DNA from: a virus
Reading direction: 5' to 3' (one strand)
Length of the DNA: 64,000 nt
Virus record (IMG/VR): IMGVR_UViG_3300032516_000014
Location: 12,396-76,395 of that record
Below are positions 2,354-60,663 of this stretch, one piece after another (positions within the stretch are counted from its first letter, which is position 1; each line of letters begins with the position of its first letter). The notes beneath the pieces are model-generated. The model was not told where the DNA came from. It saw only the letters and a list, made by a program, of their open reading frames with translations, and made no database searches. Made by a program: the position numbers and the translations under genes.

Positions 2354-5300
2354 TCATTTCGGGCGAATCTCTGCCTTCTCGGCGGATTGCGTAGCGGGTT
2401 TCACGGCGCCGGCTAAACGCTGACGCCGTTCCCACTCGTCCACCAGCACGCGATGCCAGTTTTTATCAACCCGGCGAAACCGATCATCGGTCACTAGACG
2501 CTGTAACTCGGCGTCGGGCATCCCCTGCGACATCATCTTCTCATTCTGGCTCGCGCGCTTTGGCATAAAATTCGCCGAGTTAATATCGCCCAGGTCGAGG
2601 CCCAAGTCAAGGGGCTGTTCTGTCGGCGCGGCCCGGATCTCCAGCCGGCCAGTTTCCTCGTTTCGTTGCAGCTTTTTCAACGGCTCCTCGAAAGACGCCA
2701 GCTCTTCGCCGGCCCCCCGAGTCCACCCGCGCTCGCCCCACAGCTTCTTTTCCTGAAACCACATCAGGGCTTGCAGGTCGTCCGGCTGCATGTGCAACTC
2801 TTTTGCCGCCTTTGCAAATGCTTCCTGCGCGAACAAGAAGGCGGGATCGGTAATGCCGCCCTCGCTGCGGGGCAGCAATCGCCACGGAGATTTCGTCAGC
2901 CCGTCCCAGCCCAGGCGTTTCATCGTCCGGGAAGCCCACACGTCGATGGTCGCGCCGTGATCGGTGCCCGCCAGGTTTTTCGCAAACTGCTGCGTCTTGA
3001 GCCCCTGCACTTCCTCGGCCCAGGTGCCGGACAGCACCCGCAAAACCTGATCCGAGTTCTGGCCAAATTGTTTTTCGTTCTCGCGAACTAAGGAGAGCTC
3101 GCGGCTTTCGATCCACCACTCCTTCAGCGCAGCGTCGGAGGGCACGATGGTTGAGTTGTTCTCGCGCTGCCATTGCCGCAACAACCCGCCCGTTTCCAGC
3201 TTGGCATAAGCCTTCTTGTATGAAGCGATCGCGTCGTCGAACTTGCCTTCCTTCCAGAGGTTATACGCTTCGAGAGCATACTTGAAGTTTTGGGCCACGT
3301 CAGTTCTCGCGCTGGTGGCCGCGAGCAACTGGGCGAAAGAAGTAACCTCGGCGTCAGTCTTGAAGTGCTCTTTGATCAGCCGGACGGTTTCTTGATACCA
3401 GGACTTGCCGGCGAGCACGTCTGGGTCAGCAATTGCGCGCGCTTCTTCGGCAATCTTCTTGGCGAATGCAGTCGTCTGGGCATCTTGACGCGCTGACTCT
3501 CCGCGGATTCCTTTGGCAGCTTGCCGGGACAAAGGCGAATCGTCGAACGTGTATTTCACCATGTTCACGAGGGGCTTGCCTTTGGCGTTGATAATGTATT
3601 CGCCTTCGGGGGTTCGCTTGAACAGGACGGGCACTGACTCCGGGTGGAATTCAACACGTTCCTGCGTTACGCGCCGAGCGTAATCCCGAGCAAAGGCTTG
3701 CGGGTCCGTCTCCGTTACCTCGGCCCCGAACTCTGCTTGCTCCGCGTCGCCTTTCTTCGGCTTGGGCATGAACGCGGCTCGTTGCGCGCCAGTGTCAGAA
3801 ATGAGGGGGAGGTGATCCAACTTGTCGATGCCCTCATACTCCACCAGGTTTGCGGCGCCTCCATCGACAATCTTCATTTTGCCGTTGAGGATGTTGACCC
3901 GCATGTGGTCGATGTCGTCGAGGTTCTCGCGCACCAACTGGAAAATCTTGTCCTTCGCATCCGTGGTCCAGGCGTTCTCGGAAGCCTCGATCGCTAGCGT
4001 TCCGGTGCGAGGTTCGTAGCGAACGCGAATGAAGCCTTCTCGAATGGCCTTCTCTCGTTCAGCAATGTCGGGCACGTTTGCAAAGTCCGTGCCGTATTCC
4101 GCGTTGAGCTTAGCGCTATTACGGGCCAGCCAGTCCTCGTGCATGCTGCCCTGGATGGAGCGGAACTTTCCGTCGGGGTCGATCCACCCGGAGGTTTCCA
4201 GCTTCTCAGGTTCCTCCCGCCGGCCGCGCTTAGCCATCATTGCTGCTTCGGGCGGTTTGGGCAGCTCGGCTGGGATCGCGTTCTCTCCCTTCAACAACGC
4301 TTGCACCGCCTTCGCAATCTGCGCGGGAGAGGTCAGAACGGTTTTCCCAGTGCCGCCCACCGGGATTGAGTGTCCGTAAGGGTCCTTCTCCGTGGGCACC
4401 GTGTCATAAATCGCCTGCTGCTGGTTGAACTTCCCAAAAGCGATCGTGTTGTCCCGATGCTTCTGATCAGGCAGCGCATTCACGTCGATGCTTGTCTGCG
4501 TCGGGTCGTCCATCTTGAACACCCCCATAGCCGTCCCCGGAATTGCAAGCACGTCCTCGTATCGGTCGGCTACTTTTTGCACCGCCGCCGGAGTGAGTGC
4601 CTTCGTCAGCACGTTCTCGCTGGCCACGGTGACGATGTCCACTTTCTGATCTTTTCGATCCCACACCTTGCCGGCGCCGGTGAACGTCTGCCCAGAGCTG
4701 GTGCCCTCGCGAACCTTTGCAAGTTCGTCGGCGACTTCCTTCGATTTCTCAAACGCTTGCGGCATGAAGGCGCCGTGAAACTGCGCAACCCTTGACGAAG
4801 TGCGACTGGGCAAGTGGCCGGCGCGATAAAACTCTTTGATGTCGTTGATAATTACCGTTGGATTCGTGACGGCCGGATAAACCCGGCTATCACGTGCGTA
4901 ACCGTTTTGATCAACTAAATCAACAGCCACCTCCCCCCACTCATTTTTCAAACTCGGATCAGCGAAGAAACTTTCCAGCTTGCGATATTGTGCCTCAGAA
5001 GGTTCTTTGTTTGAGGAGATCTCCGCACCGGGTAACTCCGGCATGATTCGGATCGCGCCGGAATTGACAAACGCTGTCAGCCCGGATGTTTCACCGGAGT
5101 AACCCAATTTCCCAGCACCGGCTTTCTTCGATGCCGCCGCTATGAACGGGGTAAGCATGTTTTCTCCCACCGCTTCAGCAATCGAAGAGTGGTCGATCGT
5201 GCGTTTGTAATCTCCAGGCGGGGCATCGGGACCTTTGCCGGTGAAATCAAGCTGCGTGCCGTCGGGTAGTAGATAGCCGGTCTCCTTCCACTTCTCCGTG

Positions 5301-8300
5301 TCTCCGTATTCCCGCCAGGCGGCGCGATGCAAGCGTCGAGCGTATGTAGTCAGTAACTTGTCTTCGGACTCCTTGCGCTTGGCCATGAACGCACCTTCGG
5401 CCTTGCCGGTGGGTTCATCAACAATTTTCCATCCGAGACGATTAAGAGCGCTCTCGAAAACATCAGTCCCGACAGGAAGTGTTCCGCGGGGAACGCCGGG
5501 TAGAGGCTCCCACACAGTCACAACTCTTGTCAGAGCTCCAGTAGCAGGAGAATACCGGGGCTTGCCAACCGATGCCCGCACAAGTTGGTTGTCGGGACCC
5601 TGCAACAAAACGCTCACGTCTCCGGGTGTCGATTTCGGTATGTTCTTAAAAGACCAGCCGGATTTGTTTCTCCAAGCAGAGCGTTCCATTACTTCTGCTC
5701 CCGTTTCTTTTTGCCCGGGGATGTCCTCGGGTAAAATAGGCAGATCAGCCATTCCAGCGACTCGACTTTTCGTCATGAACGCACCTTCGGCCTTGCCGGG
5801 CGTCTTGTCAAGTTGCTGCGAGGCCCAGTCGTAGATCTCGCGCGCGAAATTCTCGTGGATCGCCGGGTCGGTGTGGAACGACTTCGCGAGCACGTTCTCA
5901 TCCACGTCGGCGGCAGAGGTCGTCTTCAACTCCTTCGACAACTCGCTGCCCTCATACACGGCCAGGTTGTAGATGTTCGCGTGGCTGATCACGTCTGAAT
6001 TCTTCCGGAGGAAGTCCATCGTGTGCGCATAGGTCGCCGCGGTCTCCCCCGGCAACCCGATCACGATGTTCGGAATGAACGCGATGCCCAGCCGGCGCAT
6101 CTGCTCGGTGGCGGCGTCGATCAACTTCTCGTTCGCCGGTTTGCGCTGACCTTTCAGCACGCTGTCGTTGTAGGACTCGACGCCCAGCTCGATGAACTTG
6201 ATGCCGCTCTTGCGCAGGAATTCGTCGCTGAAGGACTTCATTTGCGCCGCCGTCGTCTGAATCACGAAGCCCCCGAAGTCGGGATTCGCAGCCTTCATCT
6301 TGGCATAGAGCTCGGGCAGTCGCAAGTAACTGTCGTGATGGCCGAAGGTTTTGTCGTTGAGATAAGCCAGCGGCGCATTCAGATCGCCGAAGGCGTCCAC
6401 TTGCTGAGTCACTACCTCGGGCGGCGTCCCAACGACCTTTTTCGTGGTCGTGCAGAACTTGCACGCGTGCCGGCACCCCTGCGAGAGATCCAGCCGAGGA
6501 ACAACGGAAGAACCCCGATACAAGCGGTAGTCAAAGCCGCGTTTGTATTCCAGCCCAAGAGATCGAACGTATTCATCGATGGATTCATACCGGGTTGCGC
6601 GAGGGTTGCGCGAGGTGATCTCGCTGGTGTCCGTGTAGCCGCCCAGGACCGTGTGGCCTGGATTTGCGTCCGCGAGCTCCGCGACCTTCGACTTGTTCAC
6701 GTCGAGCACCGAGAAGGCCACGTCCTGGTAGCCCGCTGTGGCGAGAAAGCTCTTGGCTTCCGCCATGTCGCGCACCACGTAGAGATCCGCCGCCTCGCCA
6801 AGCGCGTGTGTCAACACTGCGTGCCACTGCGGGACTTCCCAGAAGTCGGGCAGTCGAGCATACCCCTTGCGCTGCGCATACAGCTTGTCGTAATATGCGG
6901 ATGCAGCAACATCCAAGGGATTTGGAGGTTTGTTCACGTCGGTTGGGGCATACATCATGTCCTTCGTGAACTGCATCAGCAACACCCGGTTGGAGTTGTC
7001 CGACGCTCCCGACTGGCGAACCCATAGGTTGCCCTTGCCCCGCTCGACCGCGTGCCCATACGTATCCGCAGGCTCCGTAATCTCGCTGCCGCGCGCCTTG
7101 GGCATGAACGCCGCCGGGGTGAGGCCGGCGGATTCCCCCGGAAGAGCGGGCCGGTCGGGGTTTGTCTCAGAGCTTCCGACCATGCCATCAGGAATGTCGA
7201 TCGGTCGCTGCGGAGTCGGCCCGAGTGGTTCAGTTGTCGCAGGGGCATCTTCTACCGTCCAACCCTTCTTGTTTAGCGAGGGCTCGTATGTGGTGCTACG
7301 CGCGGTGAAAGCACCGGGGAAAGATTCCTTGGGTGTGATCTGTCGCACCATACCCAGGCCCAGCACGGAGGCATCCTGGTCCCCGTCGTGCGTGGCTGCG
7401 ACTCGTTCCCCGTTCGGCCCCACCAGGGTTACGTCACGCTTCGGCATGAAGCCGGCGCGAGCCAGGTCCGTCGAAGGCATGCGCAGCAAAGACTCAGGCC
7501 GCGGCGTGAGACCGCGGATCTGCTCCAGACTGAGCTCTTGCGTGACTTCGTGCAACTGCCCTTTCGCGTCGAAGCCGGCGTCCACCAGCTCCGCCCGCAG
7601 GGGGTTGGTCTCCATGACCGGCACGTCTTCCGGGACGATGATGCCCTTCTTGGCAAGAGCTTCCTTCTTGAAGACCGGCGCGCCTTTCGCGGGGGTAAGC
7701 GGGCGCCCATGCGCCTCTGCAAGTATCTGTGCCGCCATTCCCGCGGGCATCGGCATACCCGAAGGTCCGGTTCGCTGGGCAACTCGGCCAGTTTTCGGCG
7801 GAGCGAGGCCCATCGAGGCGTTGATGAATTGCGCTTTCCGCGGATCAAGAAGGGTCGGCTTCCAGTTTGGATCTGGCGCCGGGATTACCCCTTGCCAGCC
7901 TGCGGGTGGGTGCATCGCCGTGCCGTCGCCGCCGTAGCCGTGAGCGTGATTGCGCAGGTAAGAGGTTACATCAGCCGCAAAGTCCCTAAATCCAGGCTCC
8001 GTGAAATGCCCGTCCGACCCTGTTTCATACGGCACAAGACCTGGTGCCTTCTTGCGAGCGGAAAACTCTCCAATCCGTAGCGCATTCGCGAGCAGGATGT
8101 CGAGGTTCATCGACAGCAGGTTTACGTTGTCTCCGCGAACCTTAACGCCATAGAATATCGCTTGATGTCGGAGCGTCCGCAAGAGTTCAACCGGATAGGT
8201 CCCGTCCGCCTTGCGCTGCAATTCGACTTCAAGACGCTCCGCCCTGCGGATGTATCTTGCCACGTTTTCACCAACCGTTTCGGGCCGGGCATAGTCGAGC

Positions 8301-10780
8301 TCCACTGGAGTAACATCGCCATGTTCCCGTTGCAGCAATTCCCAAACCTGGTCCATCACTGCCTTGGCGTTGTCGTCGTATTTCGGGGAAGCTTGCGTGC
8401 GGCGGCGCGCTTCGGAAAGCCCTTCGATGTCTTTCGCCTGGGCGACGAATTCTTTGGTGCCTACGCCTGGCGGGCGCATGAGCGAAGCCTGCGCGCCTGT
8501 CGTTGCCGCTCGAATCGGCACCGCTCCAGGCACCCCGGGGGCTGGACGAAGAACGGGCTGGATCTCCAAAGCTTTCAACCTCTCCGCCAGCACGGGAGTT
8601 TCCAGAGAACGAAAAACAGGTTCGGCAAGCTGTCGCCCTGTAAAAGAGGGCGTCAAACCGCCGTGGCGGCCGGTGATAAAAGTTTTCGGATCGAGAGTTG
8701 GGCGAACTATGCCTGCCTTTTCAAATAGCGAGCCCAGAGCTGTAAACGCGGAGTTTAGCACTCCGGGTGGCGCGCCGTTCAAAGACCGCCCACGTAGAAT
8801 GGCGCCCAGGGTCTCCGCAGAAGCTTCGTCCAGAATGTTGCCGGTCGCACCTTTGCCCCCGTAAAGCTCTTCAAGCGCGGGGCGGATCGGGTTGACGTGC
8901 GTAGCCAGATCTGCCCGATACTTTTCCCAGGCAGGCCGATCTGTCTCCCGAAGCAGCCAGTCGAGCACGTGCCCGGGCTCATGATAAACTGCGGCGTCCC
9001 CACCATTCAACAACATGACTTTCCGTGGTCCCCGGCCTTCCGTCGGATCAAGCCGGACGGTGAAGCCACGCTGCCCCCGGGCTTCAGCAATCAGTTGCTC
9101 CGGCGTGAAGTCCGGGTGTTCGCGTTGAACTTCAGCCAACACCCGCGGATCTTGGGCAAACTGGTCCACAGGCAGCAAGTAAAGCTCAGCCTTGCCGCGG
9201 AAGTATTCCCGCACCCGATTGATCAAACCTGCTGTGGGGGAATCGTTCCTGCGCAACGCTTCAATCGCCTGCGTGTGGGCCTGATCGAGGTTGGGTTCGA
9301 TGTTGAAAGCCGGTGAACGCACCGGGTCACGCGCGACTTCCTGATACCGCGCCTGGTAAGCCCTTGCGACGCCTTCGTGCGCAGCAGAAACGGCTTGACG
9401 TGTTGCTCCCCCGAAGCCACCAAAGAAAGCCATCGTGCCGATGAGCTGCCCCGCCTCCATGTCAGTATGCGCCCCCAGGGCAAACGGCGCGCTCGCAAGA
9501 CCGCCTTCGATTGCGCCAGCCACCGCCGGGGTTGCAAGTTTTGCGATCGGCAACGCGTTCTCAGCCAGGGCTGCTCCGCCGCGCTTCAAACCCCACTCCG
9601 TCCCCTTTGTCACAGCATGCGCAACTTTGCCGGCGACCCAGCCCCCCGGACCCGCCGTGACTGCCCCGCCGAGCGGAGCTTCTTTTCCGACCCAACCCAC
9701 CACAGGAGCCGCCGCTTTTTCTGCGGCCCATCCCGCACCTTTGAAAAGCTTCGCCAGGGAAAATTCTGTTGCGATGCCGATGGTCTTTCCTCCAAGACCG
9801 ATCACCTCGAACAGCTTGCCTCCGCCCATCGGAATGAACGTCATCGGCCCGTTGAAGAGCGACTTGTCTGCGATCGCTTCTGGATCGAGGGTAACACCGG
9901 CGGCCTGCAATCGCTCCGGGGTAACGCCTGCCAAGGAAGATACGACCCCACCTCCCTGCGCAACGTTTGTGTGCCGACGAAAACTTTCTGCGTCGGCGTC
10001 GAGGTCCTCACGCAACCGCAGACGGCGAGCCTCGGGATTCTCCTCCACCTTCGCCCGTTGGCCAGTCACCTCACCGGGAACACCGGGCACCCCCGGCACC
10101 GGGGCCGCTCGATACACCCGGCCCGCCGTCCGGGAAACAAGAGTAGCCAGATCCCGAGCTTGCAGAATTCCTTCGTCGATTGACGCTACGCTTTCGCCCG
10201 CAATCTTCGCCGCTGCCGCCAGCGTTGAATCCCGCACTTCCATGTTGTTTTCCAACATGTCTTTCGCGAAGGCCCAGGCTAGTTTCGCTTCACCCGCGGC
10301 GGCCCCCGCGACCGCGCGCACCCCACTCTTGCCCGTTTCCCACAAGCCTCGGCCGATCGCTTTTGCGGTGCGCCCCACTTCCCACGGCCGCGCGTCTTGT
10401 GCATCGTAAATCTCGTAAAGCTTCTCGCGCAAATCAGGCGGCAAGTCTTTTCCGTATTGGCCCAGCATCGCCACTGGTGAAAACGCGTCATCCGCCGCTA
10501 GTTCTTGCGGCGTGCGCTCCATCAGTTTCCCGATGTCTGGATTTTGAGGAGCCTGGGAAAACTCCGCAGTGCTTGGTCCTATTGAAGGGATATGCACCGC
10601 CCTTGGGGCAGCCTGAAACTCGTCAAGGGTAGGCGCAGCCGGTGTCACCGGAGCGGCGGCTTGAAACTCGGCGAGATCCGGCACTGGCGCAGCGGCGTTG
10701 AATTCTTCCACCGAAGGCGGGAGAAAAATTCCCGAAGCCGTAGCCTTTTGAATCGGCGACTCTTTGAGTTCGACAGGCAT
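2354..10780 (-). CDS. large polyvalent ejection/internal virion protein (HExxH peptidase, B12-type radical SAM and other modules)
   Basis: 2808 aa at the position of the largest podovirus ejection protein. HEPGH at 8969-8983, CRHACKFC at 6452-6475, and eight AFMPK-like linkers. Confidence 0.85.
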   Translation of the reverse strand: MPVELKESPIQKATASGIFLPPSVEEFNAAAPVPDLAEFQAAAPVTPAAPTLDEFQAAPRAVHIPSIGPSTAEFSQAPQNPDIGKLMERTPQELAADDAFSPVAMLGQYGKDLPPDLREKLYEIYDAQDARPWEVGRTAKAIGRGLWETGKSGVRAVAGAAAGEAKLAWAFAKDMLENNMEVRDSTLAAAAKIAGESVASIDEGILQARDLATLVSRTAGRVYRAAPVPGVPGVPGEVTGQRAKVEENPEARRLRLREDLDADAESFRRHTNVAQGGGVVSSLAGVTPERLQAAGVTLDPEAIADKSLFNGPMTFIPMGGGKLFEVIGLGGKTIGIATEFSLAKLFKGAGWAAEKAAAPVVGWVGKEAPLGGAVTAGPGGWVAGKVAHAVTKGTEWGLKRGGAALAENALPIAKLATPAVAGAIEGGLASAPFALGAHTDMEAGQLIGTMAFFGGFGGATRQAVSAAHEGVARAYQARYQEVARDPVRSPAFNIEPNLDQAHTQAIEALRRNDSPTAGLINRVREYFRGKAELYLLPVDQFAQDPRVLAEVQREHPDFTPEQLIAEARGQRGFTVRLDPTEGRGPRKVMLLNGGDAAVYHEPGHVLDWLLRETDRPAWEKYRADLATHVNPIRPALEELYGGKGATGNILDEASAETLGAILRGRSLNGAPPGVLNSAFTALGSLFEKAGIVRPTLDPKTFITGRHGGLTPSFTGRQLAEPVFRSLETPVLAERLKALEIQPVLRPAPGVPGAVPIRAATTGAQASLMRPPGVGTKEFVAQAKDIEGLSEARRRTQASPKYDDNAKAVMDQVWELLQREHGDVTPVELDYARPETVGENVARYIRRAERLEVELQRKADGTYPVELLRTLRHQAIFYGVKVRGDNVNLLSMNLDILLANALRIGEFSARKKAPGLVPYETGSDGHFTEPGFRDFAADVTSYLRNHAHGYGGDGTAMHPPAGWQGVIPAPDPNWKPTLLDPRKAQFINASMGLAPPKTGRVAQRTGPSGMPMPAGMAAQILAEAHGRPLTPAKGAPVFKKEALAKKGIIVPEDVPVMETNPLRAELVDAGFDAKGQLHEVTQELSLEQIRGLTPRPESLLRMPSTDLARAGFMPKRDVTLVGPNGERVAATHDGDQDASVLGLGMVRQITPKESFPGAFTARSTTYEPSLNKKGWTVEDAPATTEPLGPTPQRPIDIPDGMVGSSETNPDRPALPGESAGLTPAAFMPKARGSEITEPADTYGHAVERGKGNLWVRQSGASDNSNRVLLMQFTKDMMYAPTDVNKPPNPLDVAASAYYDKLYAQRKGYARLPDFWEVPQWHAVLTHALGEAADLYVVRDMAEAKSFLATAGYQDVAFSVLDVNKSKVAELADANPGHTVLGGYTDTSEITSRNPRATRYESIDEYVRSLGLEYKRGFDYRLYRGSSVVPRLDLSQGCRHACKFCTTTKKVVGTPPEVVTQQVDAFGDLNAPLAYLNDKTFGHHDSYLRLPELYAKMKAANPDFGGFVIQTTAAQMKSFSDEFLRKSGIKFIELGVESYNDSVLKGQRKPANEKLIDAATEQMRRLGIAFIPNIVIGLPGETAATYAHTMDFLRKNSDVISHANIYNLAVYEGSELSKELKTTSAADVDENVLAKSFHTDPAIHENFAREIYDWASQQLDKTPGKAEGAFMTKSRVAGMADLPILPEDIPGQKETGAEVMERSAWRNKSGWSFKNIPKSTPGDVSVLLQGPDNQLVRASVGKPRYSPATGALTRVVTVWEPLPGVPRGTLPVGTDVFESALNRLGWKIVDEPTGKAEGAFMAKRKESEDKLLTTYARRLHRAAWREYGDTEKWKETGYLLPDGTQLDFTGKGPDAPPGDYKRTIDHSSIAEAVGENMLTPFIAAASKKAGAGKLGYSGETSGLTAFVNSGAIRIMPELPGAEISSNKEPSEAQYRKLESFFADPSLKNEWGEVAVDLVDQNGYARDSRVYPAVTNPTVIINDIKEFYRAGHLPSRTSSRVAQFHGAFMPQAFEKSKEVADELAKVREGTSSGQTFTGAGKVWDRKDQKVDIVTVASENVLTKALTPAAVQKVADRYEDVLAIPGTAMGVFKMDDPTQTSIDVNALPDQKHRDNTIAFGKFNQQQAIYDTVPTEKDPYGHSIPVGGTGKTVLTSPAQIAKAVQALLKGENAIPAELPKPPEAAMMAKRGRREEPEKLETSGWIDPDGKFRSIQGSMHEDWLARNSAKLNAEYGTDFANVPDIAEREKAIREGFIRVRYEPRTGTLAIEASENAWTTDAKDKIFQLVRENLDDIDHMRVNILNGKMKIVDGGAANLVEYEGIDKLDHLPLISDTGAQRAAFMPKPKKGDAEQAEFGAEVTETDPQAFARDYARRVTQERVEFHPESVPVLFKRTPEGEYIINAKGKPLVNMVKYTFDDSPLSRQAAKGIRGESARQDAQTTAFAKKIAEEARAIADPDVLAGKSWYQETVRLIKEHFKTDAEVTSFAQLLAATSARTDVAQNFKYALEAYNLWKEGKFDDAIASYKKAYAKLETGGLLRQWQRENNSTIVPSDAALKEWWIESRELSLVRENEKQFGQNSDQVLRVLSGTWAEEVQGLKTQQFAKNLAGTDHGATIDVWASRTMKRLGWDGLTKSPWRLLPRSEGGITDPAFLFAQEAFAKAAKELHMQPDDLQALMWFQEKKLWGERGWTRGAGEELASFEEPLKKLQRNEETGRLEIRAAPTEQPLDLGLDLGDINSANFMPKRASQNEKMMSQGMPDAELQRLVTDDRFRRVDKNWHRVLVDEWERRQRLAGAVKPATQSAEKAEIRPK
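5384..5799. repeat. 26-bp perfect direct repeat flanking one polyprotein module
   Basis: catgaacgcaccttcggccttgccgg at 5384-5409 and 5774-5799; encodes GKAEGAFM. Confidence 0.9.
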
Positions 10781-12167: not shown

Positions 12168-13133
12168 TTACTGTCCTGGATTGCTGAATTGCGACTTGTA
12201 ATAAGTCAGGTCCGAATTGCTTAGGTTTGGCGTCCCTCCCGAGCCACCGCCGCCCATCCCGCCTATCGCGTTCCCCAGGAAATTCGTCGCTGCTCCGATT
12301 TCCTTGCCCGTGGTTTCGGCGTTCATGAGTTTGTTGCCCGCCGCGGCGTTTGCAAGATCCATCATCTGCTGATTCTTCATCTGAATCTGCTTCAGATGCA
12401 AGTTGACCACGTCGCCGCCGGCCAACCCGATGCCCGGCATCGCGGTTTCTCCGAGCCTAGAGGCCAGCCCTGCCCGGTCAGCCCGCGCATTCTGAACCTG
12501 CACGAGGGATGAAGTCAGATTGCCGAGAATCTGCGCTCGGGCGGAGTCCATGTTCGTCACCAGGCCCAGCTCGCTCTGCGCTGTCGCCTGGCGCTGCTGC
12601 TTCAAAGCTTCGCCCTGCACGCCGATCAATTCCCGCATGCGCACTCCGACCGGTCCCTCTGCCGTCGGCCGAACACCACTGCCCGTCGAAAGTCCCGCGC
12701 GCACAAGCTCCGCCTCGTATTCCGGGGACAACGTCGCGCCCAGGTCCAGGTTCTCCTTGGCCTTGTCCAGCAACAAGTCCCGAACTGCATTGCGCTTTGT
12801 ATCCGCCGGCACGTTCTCCTTGACCATCTGCGCCAGCACCGAGTCTTCTTGATTCTTGTGCAGGTCGTCCTGCAAGATGTCTGCCAAAGCACTGGCGCCC
12901 GTCTCCCGGAGCTGGGCCAGCAACGGATCGTATTTCTTCTGCGCCGCAATGCTCCCTTTGAAGCGATCGAGGTCCGCCTGTTTCGCTTCTGCTTTTGCCG
13001 TGCCGGTGTCAAGAGAGGTCTGTTTCTCGACCGATTGCTTGATGATCTTGTAGGCCTTGTTTTGGGCATGCCTGTTCATCTCGGACGACACTATCGTCCC
13101 CACCATGCCGATCATACTTCCTGCCATGCTCAT
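12168..13133 (-). CDS. putative DNA ejection/pilot protein
   Basis: Gly/Ala-rich hydrophobic N- and C-terminal segments around a Q/A coiled coil; follows the GNAT as in many podoviruses. Confidence 0.6.
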   Translation of the reverse strand: MSMAGSMIGMVGTIVSSEMNRHAQNKAYKIIKQSVEKQTSLDTGTAKAEAKQADLDRFKGSIAAQKKYDPLLAQLRETGASALADILQDDLHKNQEDSVLAQMVKENVPADTKRNAVRDLLLDKAKENLDLGATLSPEYEAELVRAGLSTGSGVRPTAEGPVGVRMRELIGVQGEALKQQRQATAQSELGLVTNMDSARAQILGNLTSSLVQVQNARADRAGLASRLGETAMPGIGLAGGDVVNLHLKQIQMKNQQMMDLANAAAGNKLMNAETTGKEIGAATNFLGNAIGGMGGGGSGGTPNLSNSDLTYYKSQFSNPGQ

Positions 13134-13573
13134 AAGGCTCCTGTCTGTTTTAGAAAGGTCAGTTCCGTCATCCGAAACCCCTTCTTCAAGTAAATCTGGG
13201 CGACGCTGCGGCCCGGCTGATTCATCATGCAGCCGGCGCTAATCAACTTCACGTCCCGACGCGCAGCTTCCGTAAACAACGCGTTCAACAACTCGGCGCC
13301 GTGCCCCCGGTATTTGGGCCGGACATACCAGTGCACCACCGTCAGGATTTGCTGGCCCGTCATGATCTCCCGAGTCGCGGTCGCGCACAGCATGCCCTCG
13401 ACAAAATCAATTTCCAGCAAGAACACTGCGGCGGCCAAGGAATCAAATGCCGCAGCCCACCACGAGCAGTAGTGCGCTGCGCTAAACTCCCCGGGGAAGC
13501 CTCCTTCGGGAAAAGCCTCCCCCGCCAGCACCGCCATCTGCGGTATGTCCGCCGTTGTCGCGCGTCTGATCAC
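13130..13573 (-). CDS. GNAT-family acetyltransferase
   Basis: MIRRATTADIP start, WYVRPKYRGHG motif A, and IYLKKGF near the C-terminus. Confidence 0.85.
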   Translation of the reverse strand: MIRRATTADIPQMAVLAGEAFPEGGFPGEFSAAHYCSWWAAAFDSLAAAVFLLEIDFVEGMLCATATREIMTGQQILTVVHWYVRPKYRGHGAELLNALFTEAARRDVKLISAGCMMNQPGRSVAQIYLKKGFRMTELTFLKQTGAL

Positions 13574-13579
13574 ACCTTT

Positions 13580-13607
13580 ATATTGCCTCTTTCCACGATT
13601 TAGTCCA
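13580..13607 (-). promoter_or_regulatory. putative late promoter (leaderless) for the GNAT/ejection genes
   Basis: TGGACT-N14-GG-CAATAT-N6-GTG; same geometry as the copies at 33.3, 40.8 and 44.9 kb. Confidence 0.5.
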
Positions 13608-13608
13608 G

Positions 13609-14814
13609 TTACAACAACGTAATCTGAACCGCCATTAGGAGTGCCTCACCAGCCGGCCCGAGGTTATCAAGCGCCGACAGATTCGCAAGATGATAGTATT
13701 GAGTAATCGCCTGCACTTCGTAAGTGGTATCATCTACGGCGTGCAGCACTCCCGACGCCGATACCAATCCGATTCCGGCGTTATCCGGGACGGCACTCCC
13801 ACAAGGAAACCCAGCCGATCCAACTACATCCCCCGAATCCGATCCGTTTTCTACCGCACGGCTGTTCGACACGTCGTAAAGCCGCAACCGCGGCTGCGCA
13901 AACGAGGACCCCGCAAAAATCTGTATCCGGTACTCTCCCGCCGGCAACGTAAACTGATCTCCAGAAAAATCAAGACTCAACGCATCCGGGTCAATGATCG
14001 AAGTAAGCGGCACTCGCGTCCAAATATCGGAAACAGCCCAGCTAGTTAGTTGCCAAGGAGGCCCGGCTTGAGTGAACGCAATGGTCGCCACTTTACGAGT
14101 CTGCGCCGGCACGACGATCGCAGGCATGAAGTTTATCACCTGCCAGCCTGTGCCGTCGAAAGCCAATTGATAAATGCGATTCGGTTGCAGTTCGTTCGCC
14201 CCTACCGCCACCGTCGCGTCGCGGCGAATCGGGTAGGCCGGCCCGCCGTTCAGCGCCAGGGTGGCGCCGGCTGCGTTCACGTATTGAAACTTCGCCAGCA
14301 GCCCGCAACTGGTATTCACGCCGTCCCCCAGCGCCGGTGTCGCAATCGAGCCGTCGGAATTCCGCAAGGCCGCGGTGTAAGTCGTGGCCCCCGCCGCGAA
14401 CACGTAAAAACACGAATTCCAGTGCAGCTTCGGCTGAGTCACGATTCGGTCGGCAAGACATTCGGTGCGCCAAACGACTCCATCCCGCAGCTTCCCGTTG
14501 CTGTCAAAGACCAAAGCGACCAGCGCATTAAGGGCGTCCACCTTGCGGCCCGTGGGGGTGTCGGAAACGTCAAGCGGAACGTAACGCCGCGTCACGGAGT
14601 CCCACACCCGCCACGACAGTCCGCCTTTAAGCCAGGGGCCGACGTTCTGCCGAGGCTCCACGTCTCCTACCACAAACGTCAGGAACCCGAAGGGGGACAC
14701 AATCCGAATCTGTTGCAGCCACTTGTCCGCAAACTTCTGCGGCGTCCCCGCGAAGGTCGGATCGAGGGGGGCCATCTCGATTAACAACTGCGAAGGAATC
14801 GGGATTGAACTCAT
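13609..14814 (-). CDS. tail fibre/receptor-binding-like protein (paralog 2)
   Basis: Paralog of 14811-15986 (shared VWRTECLADRIVTQPKLHWNSCFYV) with a divergent beta-rich C-terminus. Confidence 0.65.
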   Translation of the reverse strand: MSSIPIPSQLLIEMAPLDPTFAGTPQKFADKWLQQIRIVSPFGFLTFVVGDVEPRQNVGPWLKGGLSWRVWDSVTRRYVPLDVSDTPTGRKVDALNALVALVFDSNGKLRDGVVWRTECLADRIVTQPKLHWNSCFYVFAAGATTYTAALRNSDGSIATPALGDGVNTSCGLLAKFQYVNAAGATLALNGGPAYPIRRDATVAVGANELQPNRIYQLAFDGTGWQVINFMPAIVVPAQTRKVATIAFTQAGPPWQLTSWAVSDIWTRVPLTSIIDPDALSLDFSGDQFTLPAGEYRIQIFAGSSFAQPRLRLYDVSNSRAVENGSDSGDVVGSAGFPCGSAVPDNAGIGLVSASGVLHAVDDTTYEVQAITQYYHLANLSALDNLGPAGEALLMAVQITLL

Positions 14815-15986
14815 AGCTTGGTTATCTGAAGCCGGGCAAGAGAACCGACCCCGGTGTCTGAACACGTGTCGGTCAAGTATCTCGCACCGAGCGCGATCAT
14901 CTGCAACGAAATCGTGGTAGTGCCCGCCAATCGCGCCTGGCCAATCAAGAAAATCTCATCCCAGGTAGCACCCCAAACAAAAGACGTGTTACTCAAACAA
15001 GTCGGGTTTCCTCCACCATCGACAACTTCGGTGCCCGCCGTTACGTTATAGAGTCGCAGCCGGGCCGCGCCGTTTGCCGCGCCTGCACACTTCGCATGCG
15101 CAAAGATTTCGTATGAACCTGCTGGCAGGGTAATCTGATACCCGGCAAAACCAGTCGTCATCGAGTTAGGATCGCACAGATCCGTCAGAGGAACGTCAGA
15201 CCAGGCCGCGGGAATCAATTGCTGAAACAAGTTCCAAGGAACGCTCGTAACCTTGAAATACGCCAGGGCGCTCGGGTGCACCACGGATGCGCCTCCCGTC
15301 GCTGGGTCGAATCCCATGATCTGCCAGGAGGTGCCGTCAAACACGATCTGGTAAATCCGGCCCACCTCGATGTTGCCCCCCACAAGCGGAGTGCCGGTGC
15401 CCACCACGATCGGATATGCGGTGCCCCCGTTCAGAGAGAAGGTCGAGGCGCCGGTGTTAGCGTTCTGAAACTTCACGAAGATGGCCAAGCTATCCGTGAT
15501 GCCGTCTCCAAAAGTCGGTGTTGCAACACTTCCATCCGAGTTCAACAAGTTGGCGGAGTAGCCATTCACTCCAGTTGCCAGCACGTAGAAACACGAGTTC
15601 CAATGCAGCTTCGGCTGGGTCACGATTCGGTCAGCAAGGCACTCGGTTCGCCAGACGGTCCCGTCGCGCAACCGCCCGTTGTTGTCAAACACCGCATTGA
15701 AAAGCGCGGTGAGCCGGTCCACCTCTGCCGCTAGAGTGCTGTCAGAAATGTCGAGGGGAACGTAAGTCTTCAGCACCTCGTCCCAAACCCACCACGCGGT
15801 GCCGTTCTTGAGCCAGGGACCGGCGTTGAAAAGCGGCTGCGTGTCGCCTACGACGAAGGTAACAATTCCCGACGGGGAAGAGATCCGCACCCGCTGAATC
15901 AAATGCGTCGCGAAATCTTGCAGGTTGCCCTTGAACGCTGGATCGAGAGGGGCCAGCTCGACCACCAATTGAGTTGGATTCACCAT
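14811..15986 (-). CDS. tail fibre/receptor-binding-like protein (paralog 1)
   Basis: KFQNANTGASTFSLNG...YQIVFDGTSWQI fibre-type domain; C-terminal ITLPAGSYEI beta-sandwich. Confidence 0.65.
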   Translation of the reverse strand: MVNPTQLVVELAPLDPAFKGNLQDFATHLIQRVRISSPSGIVTFVVGDTQPLFNAGPWLKNGTAWWVWDEVLKTYVPLDISDSTLAAEVDRLTALFNAVFDNNGRLRDGTVWRTECLADRIVTQPKLHWNSCFYVLATGVNGYSANLLNSDGSVATPTFGDGITDSLAIFVKFQNANTGASTFSLNGGTAYPIVVGTGTPLVGGNIEVGRIYQIVFDGTSWQIMGFDPATGGASVVHPSALAYFKVTSVPWNLFQQLIPAAWSDVPLTDLCDPNSMTTGFAGYQITLPAGSYEIFAHAKCAGAANGAARLRLYNVTAGTEVVDGGGNPTCLSNTSFVWGATWDEIFLIGQARLAGTTTISLQMIALGARYLTDTCSDTGVGSLARLQITKL

Positions 15987-15990
15987 AATC

Positions 15991-16134
15991 TTACAGGGTC
16001 ATGAACACCGTTGCGCCCGAGCCGGACACCGGGGCCGACGAGGGCAGCCCGGTCGGTTCGCCGAAGAACGCAGGGCTCTCGTAATCGTCCGGGATTTCCC
16101 GGCGGGTGATCGGTCTGGAAACTTCGTCGTTCAT
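15991..16134 (-). CDS. small hypothetical protein (47 aa)
   Basis: ATGA overlap with the nozzle gene stop. Confidence 0.5.
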   Translation of the reverse strand: MNDEVSRPITRREIPDDYESPAFFGEPTGLPSSAPVSGSGATVFMTL

Positions 16135-18911
16135 TTTGTCATTGTGTGCACGTCCACGAGCACCCCGCCCTTGGTGATGCACGTCAGCGTAAACGTCACC
16201 GGGGTTGCCCAGATTCGCATCGCAAAGTTGTCCGTGCTGGTTTCCGAATACCGGACCACACTACCCGGATACACCAGCGCCGGGTTGAACAGTCGCATCG
16301 TATTCTGGCCGCCGCCCCCGCCCGCAATGAAGTCGCAGCCACCAATCACCAAGCGTTCATAAACGTGCGAATGCCCCGACAACACCAAATCCGCGCCCCA
16401 CGCATGGAACGGCCAGCGCAGCCGAAGCTGGCCTGGATAATAGTTGTTGGTCGTGGTGCCCGAGACATACGGCGCCTGGTGCATGACGACAATCTTCCAC
16501 GGCGCCGTCGAACTGGCCATAGCCGCCTGAAGCCAGAGCGCCTGCACCGAGGTCTCATCGTTACCGTCGGGCTCGCACACCGGCAACCCCGTGCCCGAGC
16601 TGGCGGTGTTGATGCCCGTGCTGAGGACGAACACCTCGATGTTGCCCACGCGCCGGGAGAAATACCTCGCCTGGCCCAGGAACCCAAACAGGAACGCGCC
16701 ACACCCAAGATCGAAGTCGTGATTTCCCGCCGCGGCGATCAGCGTGCCATTCGTCACAAAAGACGAGTAAGCCGCCAGCGCCGGGGTGTAATTCGCCGGA
16801 TTTGCCGAGTCGTTGATGTCCCCGCCCATGACCACGAGGTCGGGATTCCAGCTCAACACTTCGGCAGCGACCGAGTTATGATTCGCGCTCGGAAGCCCGG
16901 TGTCCGAGACGAAAGCAATCACCGTTTGGCCAGCCACAGGGACCAACGGCGCCGCCGGCTGCCCCACGAACAACCCAATAGAATAATCCGGCGGACAAAT
17001 CGCCTGCAAGTGCTGCACAGCGCGCTGCGTCGCAATTTGTAGCGCCACTTTGTCCGCCGTCTCCTGGCTAATGTGGGACCGGGCCACGGCCGTTTGCGTG
17101 GTAGTCCGACCTTTGAGGGCCAAGGTAATCGACTGCATCGAATCGTAAACGTCCGCGCTTGCGTTAAGCGGCGTGAGATCCCCCGCCGCCGCCGCACCGT
17201 CAAATCGCACCGCTCGAACAGTAGATTCATCAGCCTCGCAAACACCCTCAGCCTGCTCCGCCTTCATGTCCGCGAAAGCCCGGCACTCCAGGATCGCCGC
17301 CTGGCCACACCACGTGACCAACAACTGAAACGCATAGTCCCGCTGCTCCTGATCTGCGCTTTCCACTCCGGCGGAGGAATCGAGCAGCTCATACGTCGCC
17401 CGAATGTCCGCGGTCCGGGTCCACCGGGACTGCTTCTTGTAGGCGAACACTTGCGAGGCCATCGTCAATTGCGCCTGCGCATCTAAATCTCCTGTCGGCG
17501 CCTCCACCCGCTTCAGCAACGCGGTCTTGTATTTCCCCCGCTCCGCCCCGGCCCACTGGACCTTCATGTCCACCACGCCGCTTAGCTCCCCCCAGTGAAT
17601 GTCCGCGTAGCGGAGGTGCTTCTTGCCCCTGGTGCCGAATTGCAGCGCGCGCATCTCCACCCAAGCGGTAATGTCAACGCCATGATCCTGCCGCTCAGAC
17701 TGGAAGGCCTCCCACAACCGGTTGGTGCCGTCGTAGTCCACCGAAATGTGGAAACAACGCTCCTGCCCGTTCACGTCTCCGCTGGCCCACTCCACCGGCC
17801 GGGTGCCAGTCCAGAACGCATTCCACACCGCCGGAGACTTCTCCGTCAGCGTGGTGAGCACGTTGTGATCGAGAACCCACGTATGGTGGTTGTAGGCATC
17901 GTGCACCGGAACACTCACCAAGAGGTAATTCTCGAACCGAGAGCACGCAATAAACTCCTGGCGATTCCACATCCTCGACTTGCTGTCTGCCATTTCGTTG
18001 TCAAGAATGAAAAACTCGCTCGTCTGCTGCACGGACCGCGCGGCGTCGTAGGAGGTCAGCCCGTATTGCGAGAACCAATAAAGGCGGCCGTGCAAAGAAA
18101 TCACTGACCGCTGCGATTTGCAACCGATGGTCGGAAAAAGAGTGGTCTGGAAATCCTGGATGCTGGTCCACAAGTTCCGCTGCAACACCTGCGACTGAAA
18201 CATCGTGGTGTCCTTCTCCGAAAACACCAACAGGTTTTGAGGAGCGCCCGATCCCCCCACGTTCGCCATCGCCGTAACCTCGTGCTCCAACATGAACGCA
18301 TCCGTGCCGCCCAGGTAAAGGTTCTCGGTATAGTGAAACGGGTCCCAGATGTCAGAGGCGTAGATTAAATTCCGCTGCGCCACCCACAACCGATTGCCGC
18401 TCCAGCACATCGCAGTGCCCTGGGGCACGCCGTCGGGGTCTGTGGTATGCCCGCACGCGCTGCCGTCATACCAAGCCGGCGGCGCGTAGCCGTCCTGCAT
18501 GAACAGAATCAACCGGGGCCGAACGAAAGACAGCGATCCGTCCGGGTTCAGCGTAACCGCCTGCTGTGCGTCAGCCCAAAATATCTGGTCCGCATAAGGG
18601 CAGAAGGTAATCTCCGACAACCAGGTAAAGGTCGTGAAGGGCGGCTCCGAAACATACACCTTGCCTTCTACCACTACCACAAGCTGGGGCGTGGCTTTCA
18701 GCGGGCGGAACAGATGCAACCCTTGCAACTTACCTTCGGGCAGGTTACACATCCACCGATACCCAGGCCGGGTCTGCACGACGCCACCGCGGTTCACCAC
18801 GTTCATGCCGCGGCAATACGTGCCTTGCGCAAGCTTCAGCGAGTCAGACTGCGAGTCTTGACCGAGCAAGAAGTTGAGCTCGCCGTCGGATTGGAAGGTA
18901 GGAAGCGGCAT
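16131..18911 (-). CDS. tail nozzle/tubular protein B-like protein fused to a C-terminal calcineurin-like metallophosphoesterase
   Basis: N-terminal NVVNRGGVVQTRPG and beta-propeller-like repeats at the nozzle position. C-terminal SDTG, GGD, GNHD, MHQAPY and SGHSHVYER motifs. Confidence 0.75.
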   Translation of the reverse strand: MPLPTFQSDGELNFLLGQDSQSDSLKLAQGTYCRGMNVVNRGGVVQTRPGYRWMCNLPEGKLQGLHLFRPLKATPQLVVVVEGKVYVSEPPFTTFTWLSEITFCPYADQIFWADAQQAVTLNPDGSLSFVRPRLILFMQDGYAPPAWYDGSACGHTTDPDGVPQGTAMCWSGNRLWVAQRNLIYASDIWDPFHYTENLYLGGTDAFMLEHEVTAMANVGGSGAPQNLLVFSEKDTTMFQSQVLQRNLWTSIQDFQTTLFPTIGCKSQRSVISLHGRLYWFSQYGLTSYDAARSVQQTSEFFILDNEMADSKSRMWNRQEFIACSRFENYLLVSVPVHDAYNHHTWVLDHNVLTTLTEKSPAVWNAFWTGTRPVEWASGDVNGQERCFHISVDYDGTNRLWEAFQSERQDHGVDITAWVEMRALQFGTRGKKHLRYADIHWGELSGVVDMKVQWAGAERGKYKTALLKRVEAPTGDLDAQAQLTMASQVFAYKKQSRWTRTADIRATYELLDSSAGVESADQEQRDYAFQLLVTWCGQAAILECRAFADMKAEQAEGVCEADESTVRAVRFDGAAAAGDLTPLNASADVYDSMQSITLALKGRTTTQTAVARSHISQETADKVALQIATQRAVQHLQAICPPDYSIGLFVGQPAAPLVPVAGQTVIAFVSDTGLPSANHNSVAAEVLSWNPDLVVMGGDINDSANPANYTPALAAYSSFVTNGTLIAAAGNHDFDLGCGAFLFGFLGQARYFSRRVGNIEVFVLSTGINTASSGTGLPVCEPDGNDETSVQALWLQAAMASSTAPWKIVVMHQAPYVSGTTTNNYYPGQLRLRWPFHAWGADLVLSGHSHVYERLVIGGCDFIAGGGGGQNTMRLFNPALVYPGSVVRYSETSTDNFAMRIWATPVTFTLTCITKGGVLVDVHTMTK

Positions 18912-23940: not shown

Positions 23941-25083
23941 TCAGTAATAGTAAACCACCAGGAAAGCTTTCCGGTTGCCCGTTGTGTCCGTAGTCGCACC
24001 AGTGCCCTGCCGCGCATAAAGATTCACCAGCAACGGATCATCCGAAGAAAACGAAGCCAGAGATCCCTCGAACGAAACCGCGACTGCGAGCTGGTTGTCC
24101 GCCACGGCGGGAGAGACAAAGTTCGCGAGGTCCGTGCCGCCCCAGAGCGTTCCCGTCGGATAAACCTCTGTGTCAAATGTCGGTAAACCGCCGGCTTTCA
24201 CTTTGAAAGTGCCAATGCCTTGCGCGGCCCCGGCACCGTTCGATACTAAAACGTCCTGGAACAAGATCCGGCAAAGGCCCCAAGACTTACTTGGGAGAGC
24301 CACGATACTCCACGACCAAAGCGCGGTATCCGTAGCCCCGAGGGCAGTGCCGGAAGCAGTGCCCCGATCCACGATCATGTTCGTCGCACCACCAAGCCCC
24401 GTCCCGGCTGGACCTGTGGCACCGGTTGTGCCAGGAGGCCCCGCCACTCCCGTCGATCCCCCCGGCCCCGCCACTCCAGTCGCACCAGTCAAACCCGTAG
24501 GCCCGGTTGCGCCAGGAGGCCCAGCACCAACCACCAAAGATGAAATCGGAACCGTGACCAGATGCCCAGATAACTCCTGCACCAACTGCAACACAATCAT
24601 GTTGGCGCCGACCACAGAAACCTGGTAATACCCCGAGCCCGCAATCACCAGCCAAGCCCCAGGAACAATCCAGGCCGTCGAAGTCACCGGAATCGTCACT
24701 GTTGCCCCCACAACAGGGTGCAAAAACGCAGCCGACGTGAAAGACCACGGCGGAGCCCCATCCACTCCCGCCGGACCCTGTGGACCTTGCGGGCCAACCA
24801 AGCCCACAATACCGTTGAGGAACAGCCGCAAGAAATAGCACGCAAGACCTTCGCCCGCCGTGCGCGGATTCGAGGGCAGCCCGATGTCCAGGTTGCACGG
24901 GAGCACCCACACGACTTCGCCGTTCACCACCGTCTTAGTAACGGTGCCGAAAAACGACTCGATGAAATTGTCCAGAGCAGACTCCAACGGCTCATTGTCC
25001 GCCGTGACTACCGTCGGGCACGAGCACGGGTTGATGCACCCGCAATTGGTAACGCAATCACCGCCACAACTTTCGCAAGACAT
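23941..25083 (-). CDS. collagen-like virion protein with Cys-rich N-terminus
   Basis: GPQGPQGPAG and GATGPTGLTG tracts; starts MSCESCGGDCVTNCGC. Confidence 0.75.
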   Translation of the reverse strand: MSCESCGGDCVTNCGCINPCSCPTVVTADNEPLESALDNFIESFFGTVTKTVVNGEVVWVLPCNLDIGLPSNPRTAGEGLACYFLRLFLNGIVGLVGPQGPQGPAGVDGAPPWSFTSAAFLHPVVGATVTIPVTSTAWIVPGAWLVIAGSGYYQVSVVGANMIVLQLVQELSGHLVTVPISSLVVGAGPPGATGPTGLTGATGVAGPGGSTGVAGPPGTTGATGPAGTGLGGATNMIVDRGTASGTALGATDTALWSWSIVALPSKSWGLCRILFQDVLVSNGAGAAQGIGTFKVKAGGLPTFDTEVYPTGTLWGGTDLANFVSPAVADNQLAVAVSFEGSLASFSSDDPLLVNLYARQGTGATTDTTGNRKAFLVVYYY

Positions 25084-60267: not shown

Positions 60268-60663
60268 ATGAACACGAACGTAATCATACCGAACCGGTTT
60301 CAAGGGCAAGTCAAACCTAGCCGTCCGAGGCTTGTCCCCGCCCGCGTGCCGCAGCAATTCAAGCAGTGGAATCGCTGGGACGACGCTCCGCTCGCGAAGT
60401 TGAGGCAAGAGCAGCGCCGGGCCAGCCGGCTGCTGAGCTACCTGCCGAAGAAGATCGAGCGTGCGCGCAAGCTGGAGTTGTCGCATTTGGCCGCGGATCT
60501 CGAATCGCGCCTCGCGAGAGCGAAGATCAACTACGAGGTTCTGACCAACAAGATCGATCTGCGCACGGGCGCGCCGGTCGTGGCGCCGGAGAAGTTCCTT
60601 GGCCGGGGCGCCCGCGAGCGGCTGGCGGCGGCGAAGTTACTGAAAGACAAGGAGGCTGCATGA
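60268..60663 (+). CDS. basic coiled-coil hypothetical protein
   Basis: 131-aa ORF, coupled to the next gene. Confidence 0.65.
   Translation: MNTNVIIPNRFQGQVKPSRPRLVPARVPQQFKQWNRWDDAPLAKLRQEQRRASRLLSYLPKKIERARKLELSHLAADLESRLARAKINYEVLTNKIDLRTGAPVVAPEKFLGRGARERLAAAKLLKDKEAA

Follow-up and report, generated by a model that had tools for sequence, protein, structure and literature searches.

The 64,000-nt window analysed here (positions 12,396 to 76,395 of the IMG/VR record IMGVR_UViG_3300032516_000014) is part of a complete phage genome of 76,395 bp with direct terminal repeats. It contains the gene of a giant polyvalent protein, P0001, which is a single stop-free open reading frame (ORF) of 2808 codons (2354-10780; all coordinates are those of the window, and all features are on the minus strand unless noted otherwise). 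Behind a conserved core with a zincin-like metallopeptidase (MPTase) domain, the 2808-aa protein carries a train of eight modules that are separated by short junction peptides containing a Phe-x-Pro motif. These junction peptides are true module borders, and comparison across the family indicates that, within one protein, their middle residue x (Met, Leu, Gln, or Lys) changes jointly at every junction, and has done so repeatedly and independently. We propose that the metallopeptidase of P0001 recognises the junction peptides and cleaves the chain there, which would release the individual modules, and we assign this reading a probability of about one half.

Junction peptides delimit the modules of P0001

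The pattern [AGN][AGN][FM]M[PTA][KQ] matches P0001 at residues 1109, 1223, 1666, 1796, 2003, 2179, 2335, and 2736, which are eight copies compared to 0.003 expected per shuffle (2000 shuffles), and all FM dipeptides of the protein (7/7) are located inside these copies. In order, the junctions are AGFMPK (J1, residues 1109-1114, 7439-7456), AAFMPK (J2, residues 1223-1228, 7097-7114), GAFMTK (J3, residues 1666-1671, 5768-5785), GAFMAK (J4, residues 1796-1801, 5378-5395), GAFMPQ (J5, residues 2003-2008, 4757-4774), AAMMAK (J6, residues 2179-2184, 4229-4246), AAFMPK (J7, residues 2335-2340, 3761-3778), and ANFMPK (J8, residues 2736-2741, 2558-2575). Their Met codons end at 7447, 7105, 5776, 5386, 4765, 4237, 3769, and 2566, exactly as listed in an earlier note on this DNA, whose coordinates of HEPGH (8969-8983) are likewise correct. 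When all six frames of the 76,395-bp genome were scanned, the strict motif was present in the P0001 ORF only. The modules behind the eight junctions, M1 to M8, comprise 114, 443, 130, 207, 176, 156, 401, and 70 aa, and the range of about 70-440 aa given earlier is thus very close to the measured 70-443 aa.

The junction peptides are module borders because homology blocks end at them, near-identical relatives gain or lack modules exactly there, Pfam domains are placed between them, and J6 to J8 are found in coil. In BLAST comparisons with 52 non-trivial homologs the blocks start and stop at the junctions (query residues 1225/1228/1231 to 1659-1667 for M2, 1799-2002 for M4, 2005-2175 for M5, 2177-2340 for M6, and 2337-2733 for M7). 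The order of the modules is shuffled among the homologs, for example M6 precedes M5 in P0006, P0007, and P0017. Further evidence is provided by two relatives that have an identity of ~98-99% to P0001 and of 99-100% outside the differing modules. P0002 contains 128 extra residues exactly between two G-A-F-M-A-K copies, with J4 being the insertion point, and P0003 (encoded at locus L002) does not contain the 130-aa module M3, the breakpoint being inside the junction-coding DNA. The two Pfam domains, radical SAM (residues 1433-1591) and DUF7178 (residues 2432-2675), fall inside M2 and M7, respectively. In an AlphaFold2 model of residues 1609-2808, which was based on a 30-row alignment, the well-predicted folds are M6 (2193-2335) and M7 (2378-2718), with predicted local distance difference test (pLDDT) scores mostly above 90. 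J6, J7, and J8 are in segments with pLDDT below 50 and without secondary structure just outside these folds, with J6 in the coil before the M6 fold, J7 at the start of the linker between the M6 and M7 folds, and J8 in the coil after the M7 fold. The earlier suggestions that the motif copies mark module boundaries, and that relatives would change their module content at these very sites, are therefore both borne out. In a crude profile of composition and hydropathy, the junction flanks did not stand out from the rest of P0001.

Concerning the DNA encoding the junctions, synonymous codons vary among the eight sites (e.g. GCC GGC TTC, GCG GCG TTC, GCA GCA ATG, and GCG AAT TTT), and the proline is encoded by CCG, CCC, or CCA. 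This difference at synonymous sites points to selection acting on the junction peptide rather than on the DNA. An identical stretch of 24 nt is found on either side of M3, in J3 and J4, and in no other pair of the eight junctions. These two copies are identical to each other, yet differ at 6 nt from the single junction of L002, which makes it look likelier that M3 was inserted together with a junction than that it was simply deleted from L002.

The Phe-x-Pro junctions change in concert across the family

A search with the whole protein resulted in 55 giant homologs with lengths between 1.7 and 4.9 thousand residues. In 15 of these, Pfam models identify ART-PolyVal (10/15), LPD22/23/37/38, Kinase-PolyVal, PBECR3, Zeta toxin, His phosphatase, and GNAT domains, a repertoire characteristic of the polyvalent proteins of Iyer et al. 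2017 (PMC5512222). P0001 itself does not contain the ART-PolyVal, LPD22/23/37/38, Kinase-PolyVal, PBECR3, or Zeta toxin domains, and it is a phage-type polyvalent protein combining several disparate domains in one ORF, namely the zincin-type domain, a radical SAM domain, the HhH-GPD-like DUF7178, and five further modules. A HMMER search with residues 470-1111 yielded 144 clusters at 50% identity, and nearly all of these have the core at residues ~480-1150 of a protein of 1.3-3.5 thousand residues. Scanning IMG/VR with the DUF7178 module showed that at least 541 viral stretches encode relatives, many of them on 70-75-kb contigs. In the INPHARED phage collection, neither the whole protein nor M7 had a match (tblastn).

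The core of these proteins ends in ...A-G-F-x-P, in which the Gly and the Phe are invariant or nearly so, and each lineage has its own repeated junction. F-M-P is found in P0001, P0005, P0012, and many others with up to ten copies, F-L-P in P0070, P0084, P0098, and P0135 with up to nine, Q-F-[QS]-P in P0007 with about nine, K-F-Q-A-P in P0011 and Q-[YF]-Q-P in P0010 with seven each, and F-K-P in P0006 with five copies. A sequence logo of 561 copies contains information only at the position before the Phe (Q/G/R/K/S), the Phe itself, the following L/M, the Pro, and position +3 (A/K/S), while the flanks are rich in A/G/P/E/K/S/T and uninformative. Also in the distant homologs the motif is enriched near module borders. 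There, [FY][MQKTS]P is present within 15 residues of 13 of the 41 projected borders, compared to 2.9 expected. The 81 proteins with a strong motif contain 447 F-x-P copies of their own type downstream of the core, and just three of these are within the envelopes of three conserved folds versus 111 expected by uniform placement, a count that rests on three domain families and is less independent than the numbers suggest. The closest junction copy is located a median of 26 residues after and 41 residues before a fold.

In 80 of 96 proteins, the first junction has the middle residue that is most frequent among the junctions downstream of it. In a tree of the core, which was built without the junction, the state of the middle residue changes at least 22 times. 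In seven phylogenetically independent contrasts between Leu and Met, the downstream junctions follow in five to six cases, oppose in none, and are unchanged in one to two; this corresponds to a sign test p of ~0.03 from seven pairs, and a permutation test over the whole family ignores relatedness. A strong motif is present in 86 of the 153 proteins with this core versus 9 of 59 DUF7178-containing giants with other cores, a comparison in which relatedness is not controlled. The concerted switching and the association with the core suggest that a feature specific to the lineage of the core either reads all junctions of a chain or is the target of their homogenisation.

The core contains a predicted zincin-like metallopeptidase domain

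An AlphaFold2 model of residues 470-1111 (mean pLDDT 65) consists of two domains, the MPTase domain comprising residues 488-690 (8711-9319) and a second conserved domain comprising residues 789-1111 in the model. The latter (residues 789-1108, 7457-8416) ends in the family-invariant first junction. The HEPGH motif corresponds to residues 600-604, and the candidate third ligand, E652 (8825-8827), is, like E656, part of the downstream E-A-S-A-E. An alignment of 12 homologs shows no variation at H600, E601, H604, and E652, and E656 is conserved in at least 90%. In the predicted topology, a β-strand precedes the HExxH helix. The best whole-domain structural match of residues 488-690 is the catalytic domain of anthrax lethal factor (LF; Z 6.8, root-mean-square deviation 4.0, 159 aligned residues), followed by PPEP-2 (Z 5.8) and PPEP-3 (Z 5.5), and the LF-N-like domains of LF, edema factor, and Certhrax are further matches of this kind. 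Foldseek also puts LF first, although weakly (E 0.3). A BFVD fold search with the core gave weak matches only, the best of which (E 0.015) is a protein annotated as 'large polyvalent protein associated domain'. Based on motif and predicted fold, residues 488-690 thus represent a zincin-like MPTase outside the curated peptidase families, and the earlier description of P0001 as a polyvalent protein with an HExxH zincin agrees with the invariant ligands, the fold matches to LF and the PPEPs, and the polyvalent domains of its homologs.

Conservation around the first junction extends further than around the others, which would fit a cis site. In lineages of the Leu type, a conserved F-[KR]-A-P is found ~12 residues before it, just upstream of ...V-T-D-x-I-R-G-G-F-L-P (e.g. 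residues 1168-1182 of P0014), and P0001 has L-R-M-P-S-T-D-L-A-R-A-G-F-M-P at this place.

Possible self-processing and alternative explanations

The plan of P0001 is a variable N-terminal region, a conserved core consisting of the zincin domain and the second domain, and an interchangeable cargo train, in which each module from the end of the core onward is delimited by small-small-Phe-Met-Pro-(Lys). The embedded zincin would cut at the junctions and thereby yield separate modules. It would be the simplest reader because the combination of one site per linker, an embedded protease, and a specificity that shifts between lineages matches viral polyproteins. Because they are in frame and within flexible linkers, the junctions would also allow modules to be gained, lost, or reordered. 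A large hydrophobic side chain occupies the S1' pocket in zincins of the thermolysin and LF types. Since Phe and Pro are the residues conserved throughout the family, the cut would more likely be before than after the Phe. The earlier idea of a cut between Phe and Met releasing modules with native-looking Met-Pro-Lys ends has lost ground, as this Met gives way to Leu, Gln, or Lys in most relatives. The active site of the PPEPs reads six substrate residues, from P3 to P3', and cuts proline-containing sites (PMC12828418). Autoprocessing by the MPTases of polyvalent proteins has been proposed by Iyer et al. 2017, who cited the processing of P1 DdrB and linked these MPTases to LF by HHpred (PMC5512222), and the LF/PPEP fold matches obtained here agree with this link. 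We infer cleavage, the responsible enzyme, the exact position of the cut, and its timing, which could be in the capsid or after entry.

Several observations weigh against self-processing. Neither Pfam (E ≤ 5) nor NCBIfam (E ≤ 0.01) contains a peptidase model matching residues 481-1111, and the fold match to the zincins is middling, with Z scores below 8 allowing only a common fold to be claimed. M3 to M5 are modelled poorly, with J4 drawn at the start of a low-confidence helix, and the earlier expectation of disordered linkers between folds holds for J6 to J8, the junctions next to the two confident folds. The MPTase-bearing proteins N4 virion RNA polymerase (vRNAP), ArdC, and TraC1 are transferred uncut (PMC5512222). 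A radical SAM enzyme with its [4Fe-4S] cluster would be awkward to store in a virion and to pass through a tail, and would need to be re-metallated in the host. Finally, a concerted change of the junctions could also arise by homogenisation during cassette exchange.

The uncut delivery of N4 vRNAP, and also that of the plasmid polyvalent proteins (PMC5512222), is consistent with a different function of the junctions. They could be short linear motifs or hinges that are never cut but read by a partner, for example to dock P0001 in the capsid, to let it unfold in order and thread through the tail, or to bind a chaperone, with P0001 acting as a single chain. The tandem, aromatic-containing repeats at the N-terminus of P0001 do resemble docking motifs, and any single reader would fit the concerted change. 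However, there is strictly one motif per junction, even before the 70-aa tail, while a docking motif need not delimit every module, and an intact zincin is conserved within the same chain. We regard uncut junctions as less likely than self-processing, yet as a serious rival to it.

If the junctions are cut, this could also be done by a different protease, either a head-maturation protease of the phage or a protease of the host, and the HExxH domain would then act on host proteins or peptidoglycan. In T4 and in the phiKZ/SPN3US group, head proteases process packaged proteins at short motifs. For the metallopeptidase of the 2811-aa virion polyvalent protein of phi24B, the authors proposed a role at the cell wall (bioRxiv 10.64898/2026.04.10.717836). 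A head protease, however, normally also cuts capsid and scaffold proteins, and the motif is present in no other ORF of the genome. In addition, Pfam and PHROGs did not reveal a protease family in the structural module, which is a weak negative, and a host protease would leave the repeated, lineage-specific switches between Met, Leu, Gln, and Lys, which track the phage core, unexplained. A second protease is thus improbable.

Slightly less probable still is that the junctions are mainly recombination joints at the DNA level, with microhomology driving in-frame exchange and homogenisation and the peptide being functionless. The indels of the near-identical relatives are indeed inside junction-coding DNA, and the identical 24-nt repeat around M3, six positions off the single junction of L002, fits such an exchange. 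However, the other six junctions differ synonymously and do not share long stretches of identical DNA, Phe and Pro are retained across relatives whose cores are only ~30% identical and whose DNA has long diverged, and the junction flanks carry no information. Of the recombination joint suggested earlier, the gain and loss of cassettes within junction-coding DNA therefore stands, but a conserved DNA site does not, as the synonymous positions differ except in the 24-nt pair. Last, although a Met codon follows the Phe codon at each junction in the P0001 lineage and GA-rich codons precede some copies, it is very improbable that the in-frame ATG of F-M-P-K is an internal translation start from which the modules are also made separately, and as a general explanation this is excluded by the absence of a consistent Shine-Dalgarno or ribosome-binding sequence at the eight sites and by the replacement of the Met by Leu, Gln, or Lys at all junctions of most relatives.

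P0001 may be packaged and injected together with the DNA, which we infer from its context, namely its membership in the polyvalent class, its gene being the last of the structural operon and close to those of a tail protein and an internal-virion-like protein, and the precedent of phi24B gp47; a late intracellular role is also conceivable. Extending the proposal to the family, a large clade of ~72-76-kb dsDNA phages would make true self-processing polyproteins, in which an LF/PPEP-like zincin of the core would cut at a Phe-x-Pro code of three residues, the middle one having been re-set repeatedly at all sites of a chain together. We put this forward more tentatively, as somewhat less than an even chance.

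Comparison to known systems

Polyvalent proteins and the idea of their autoprocessing are already known. Iyer, Burroughs, Anand, de Souza and Aravind described in 2017 polyvalent proteins with a zincin-like MPTase as hub and proposed autoproteolysis and delivery together with the DNA (PMC5512222). Like these, P0001 joins unrelated enzymes to an HExxH...E metallopeptidase. Unlike in their account, which does not name a cleavage site or a junction motif and in which the words 'linker' and 'radical SAM' have no occurrence (PMC5512222), an F-x-P peptide delimits every module of P0001 and changes in step. A search of the accessible literature did not reveal a description of a junction or cleavage motif, of DUF7178, or of the processing of such a protein. 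New here are the family-wide F-x-P rule, the repeated concerted switching, which was derived from the sequences under control of the tree, the exact cassette indels, and the assignment of DUF7178 to the predicted HhH-GPD fold.

The anthrax LF/PPEP zincins (MEROPS M34-like) have, like the MPTase of P0001, an HExxH and a downstream Glu, and LF prefers a hydrophobic or aromatic residue at P1'. The P0001 domain does not have detectable sequence homology to them. They act in trans, either as secreted toxins or in the release of adhesins, whereas the P0001 MPTase is a domain of a phage polyprotein. Enzymes of the PPEP type are site-specific, read residues on both sides of the cut, and accept a nearby proline (PMC12828418).

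The polyproteins of RNA viruses and retroviruses resemble P0001 in being one chain with an embedded protease, short site peptides in the linkers, and a specificity that differs between lineages, the processing of P0001 being proposed. P0001 differs from them in belonging to a dsDNA phage and in having a metalloprotease instead of a Cys, Ser, or Asp protease. In addition, its modules are accessory and swappable, while those of the RNA-virus and retrovirus polyproteins constitute a fixed replication set. Similar in size is gp47 of phi24B, a polyvalent protein of 2811 aa with LPD and metallopeptidase domains, which is abundant in purified virions according to proteomics and has been proposed to be an ejection protein (bioRxiv 10.64898/2026.04.10.717836). 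It is unrelated to P0001, for which tblastn gave no match in the phage collection that would be expected to include the phi24B genome, and its description includes neither a junction motif nor processing (bioRxiv 10.64898/2026.04.10.717836).

Cargo modules

M1 (7106-7447) is a paralog of M3 (5387-5776; E 5e-5). M2 (5777-7105) is, as judged from its sequence, a class-B-like member of the radical SAM superfamily. Its CxxxCxxC motif (6452-6475) is intact (C1436-x3-C-x2-C1443), and PF04055 matches with 35.4-40 bits at a cut-off of 29.5. Partial matches to the NCBIfam models PhpK, HpnJ, and B12-rSAM are all below the subfamily cut-offs, and AprD4 (6fd2) is a further match. M4 (4766-5386) has homologs in other polyvalent proteins, and M5 (4238-4765) is located after M6 in several homologs. 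M6 (3770-4237) has a confidently predicted α/β fold and is a relative or paralog of the module inserted in P0002 (E 8e-4). A match of M6 to gelsolin-like domains reached Z scores of only 4.4-5.4 and was not accepted as an assignment, and a search of the ESM Atlas with M6 gave no usable match. M8 (2357-2566) is the helical C-terminal tail.

M7 (2567-3769) corresponds to DUF7178 (Pfam PF23802) and is the most widespread module. DUF7178 is predicted to have the fold of the HhH-GPD DNA glycosylases (residues 2378-2718). In the structural comparison (VIA), it matches Tm1821 Ogg (3n0u_A) with a Z score of 9.2 over 184 of 209 residues, and the entries at ranks 1 to 19 all belong to the HhH-GPD superfamily. 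These are 17 DNA glycosylases, including ROS1, OGG1, EndoIII, NTHL1, MagIII, MutY, and the AlkA type, and two queuine-salvage DUF2419 entries. The Foldseek probabilities are 0.85-0.98 at a local pLDDT of 85-98. In M7, K2595 and D2613 show almost no variation and lie 18 residues apart, a spacing that corresponds to that of the catalytic Lys and Asp in E. coli EndoIII. While the fold is common to M7 and the HhH-GPD DNA glycosylases (Ogg, EndoIII/Nth, MutY, AlkA, MagIII), neither a PDB sequence search against solved glycosylases nor the Pfam HhH-GPD model gave a match at the sequence level. Because the queuine-salvage hydrolase DUF2419 also matches (Z 6.8), the substrate of M7 may be a nucleoside rather than DNA.

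N-terminal region and genome context

The N-terminal region of P0001 contains four tandem copies of the repeat E-F-[NQS]-A-A-(A)-P (residues 22-80, 10541-10717). Repeats of this kind are present in 41 of 104 family members, for example F-R-P (four copies in P0004), D-F-K-P-V (four copies in P0015), F-D-P, P-G-F-E-G-L, and D-P-F-A-G. They are junction-like in form, yet their middle residue differs from that of the junctions of the same protein. P0001 and P0004 form a sharp mosaic. Within residues 1-470 (9371-10780) their identity is 14-36% per block of 50 residues, between residues 470 and 770 it is ~76-96%, and beyond residue 770 it is ~100%, the Gly/Ala-rich N-terminal part having been replaced.

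P0001 is the terminal gene of a long minus-strand block of late structural genes, which encode the large terminase, collagen-like tail fibres, a tail protein, and a 926-aa internal-virion-protein-like product. Its ATG is one nucleotide past the stop of the upstream 460-aa ORF, to which it is translationally coupled. A scan for promoters and terminators did not give an excess over shuffles. The 926-aa protein (16131-18911) combines an internal-virion-protein-like region (phrog_511) with a calcineurin-like metallophosphoesterase (PF00149, E 5e-15) and is another candidate for a packaged enzyme. The collagen-like tail-fibre genes of ~350 aa are three consecutive paralogs (28496-31688) and a fourth at 23941-25083. 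Three genes of the window, encoding a 418-aa protein, a 147-aa GNAT acetyltransferase, and a 321-aa protein (12168-14865), separate the tail-protein gene from the 460-aa ORF. The relative L002, which is 98% identical, has a single 351-aa ORF in their place (positions 4250-5790 of L002), and this slot adjoining the giant gene is thus a replaceable accessory site. On the plus strand, a 401-aa ORF (60366-61571) matches phage dATP/dGTP pyrophosphohydrolases (MazG-like; phrog_801, E 3e-48).

Implications

Few phage proteins are as large, or as poorly understood, as the polyvalent proteins, whose processing by their MPTases has been hypothesised since 2017 without known cut sites. The defined junction peptide supplies the exact residues to mutate and the peptides to assay, and its concerted Met, Leu, Gln, and Lys variants, found in a family that comprises at least 144 clusters at 50% identity and more than 500 viral contigs, would offer natural specificity swaps. 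In addition, the peptide is a simple rule for parsing the cargo modules of giant phage ORFs. Here, this rule isolated the DUF7178 module with its predicted HhH-GPD fold and a candidate virion-associated radical SAM enzyme. If the chain is indeed processed, the junctions could be used for loading chosen proteins into phage particles, and if it processes itself, any module inserted between two junctions without a frameshift would be delivered as an independent enzyme. Such proteins would then be a phage counterpart of the polyprotein processing of RNA viruses and a natural plug-in system for injected effectors.

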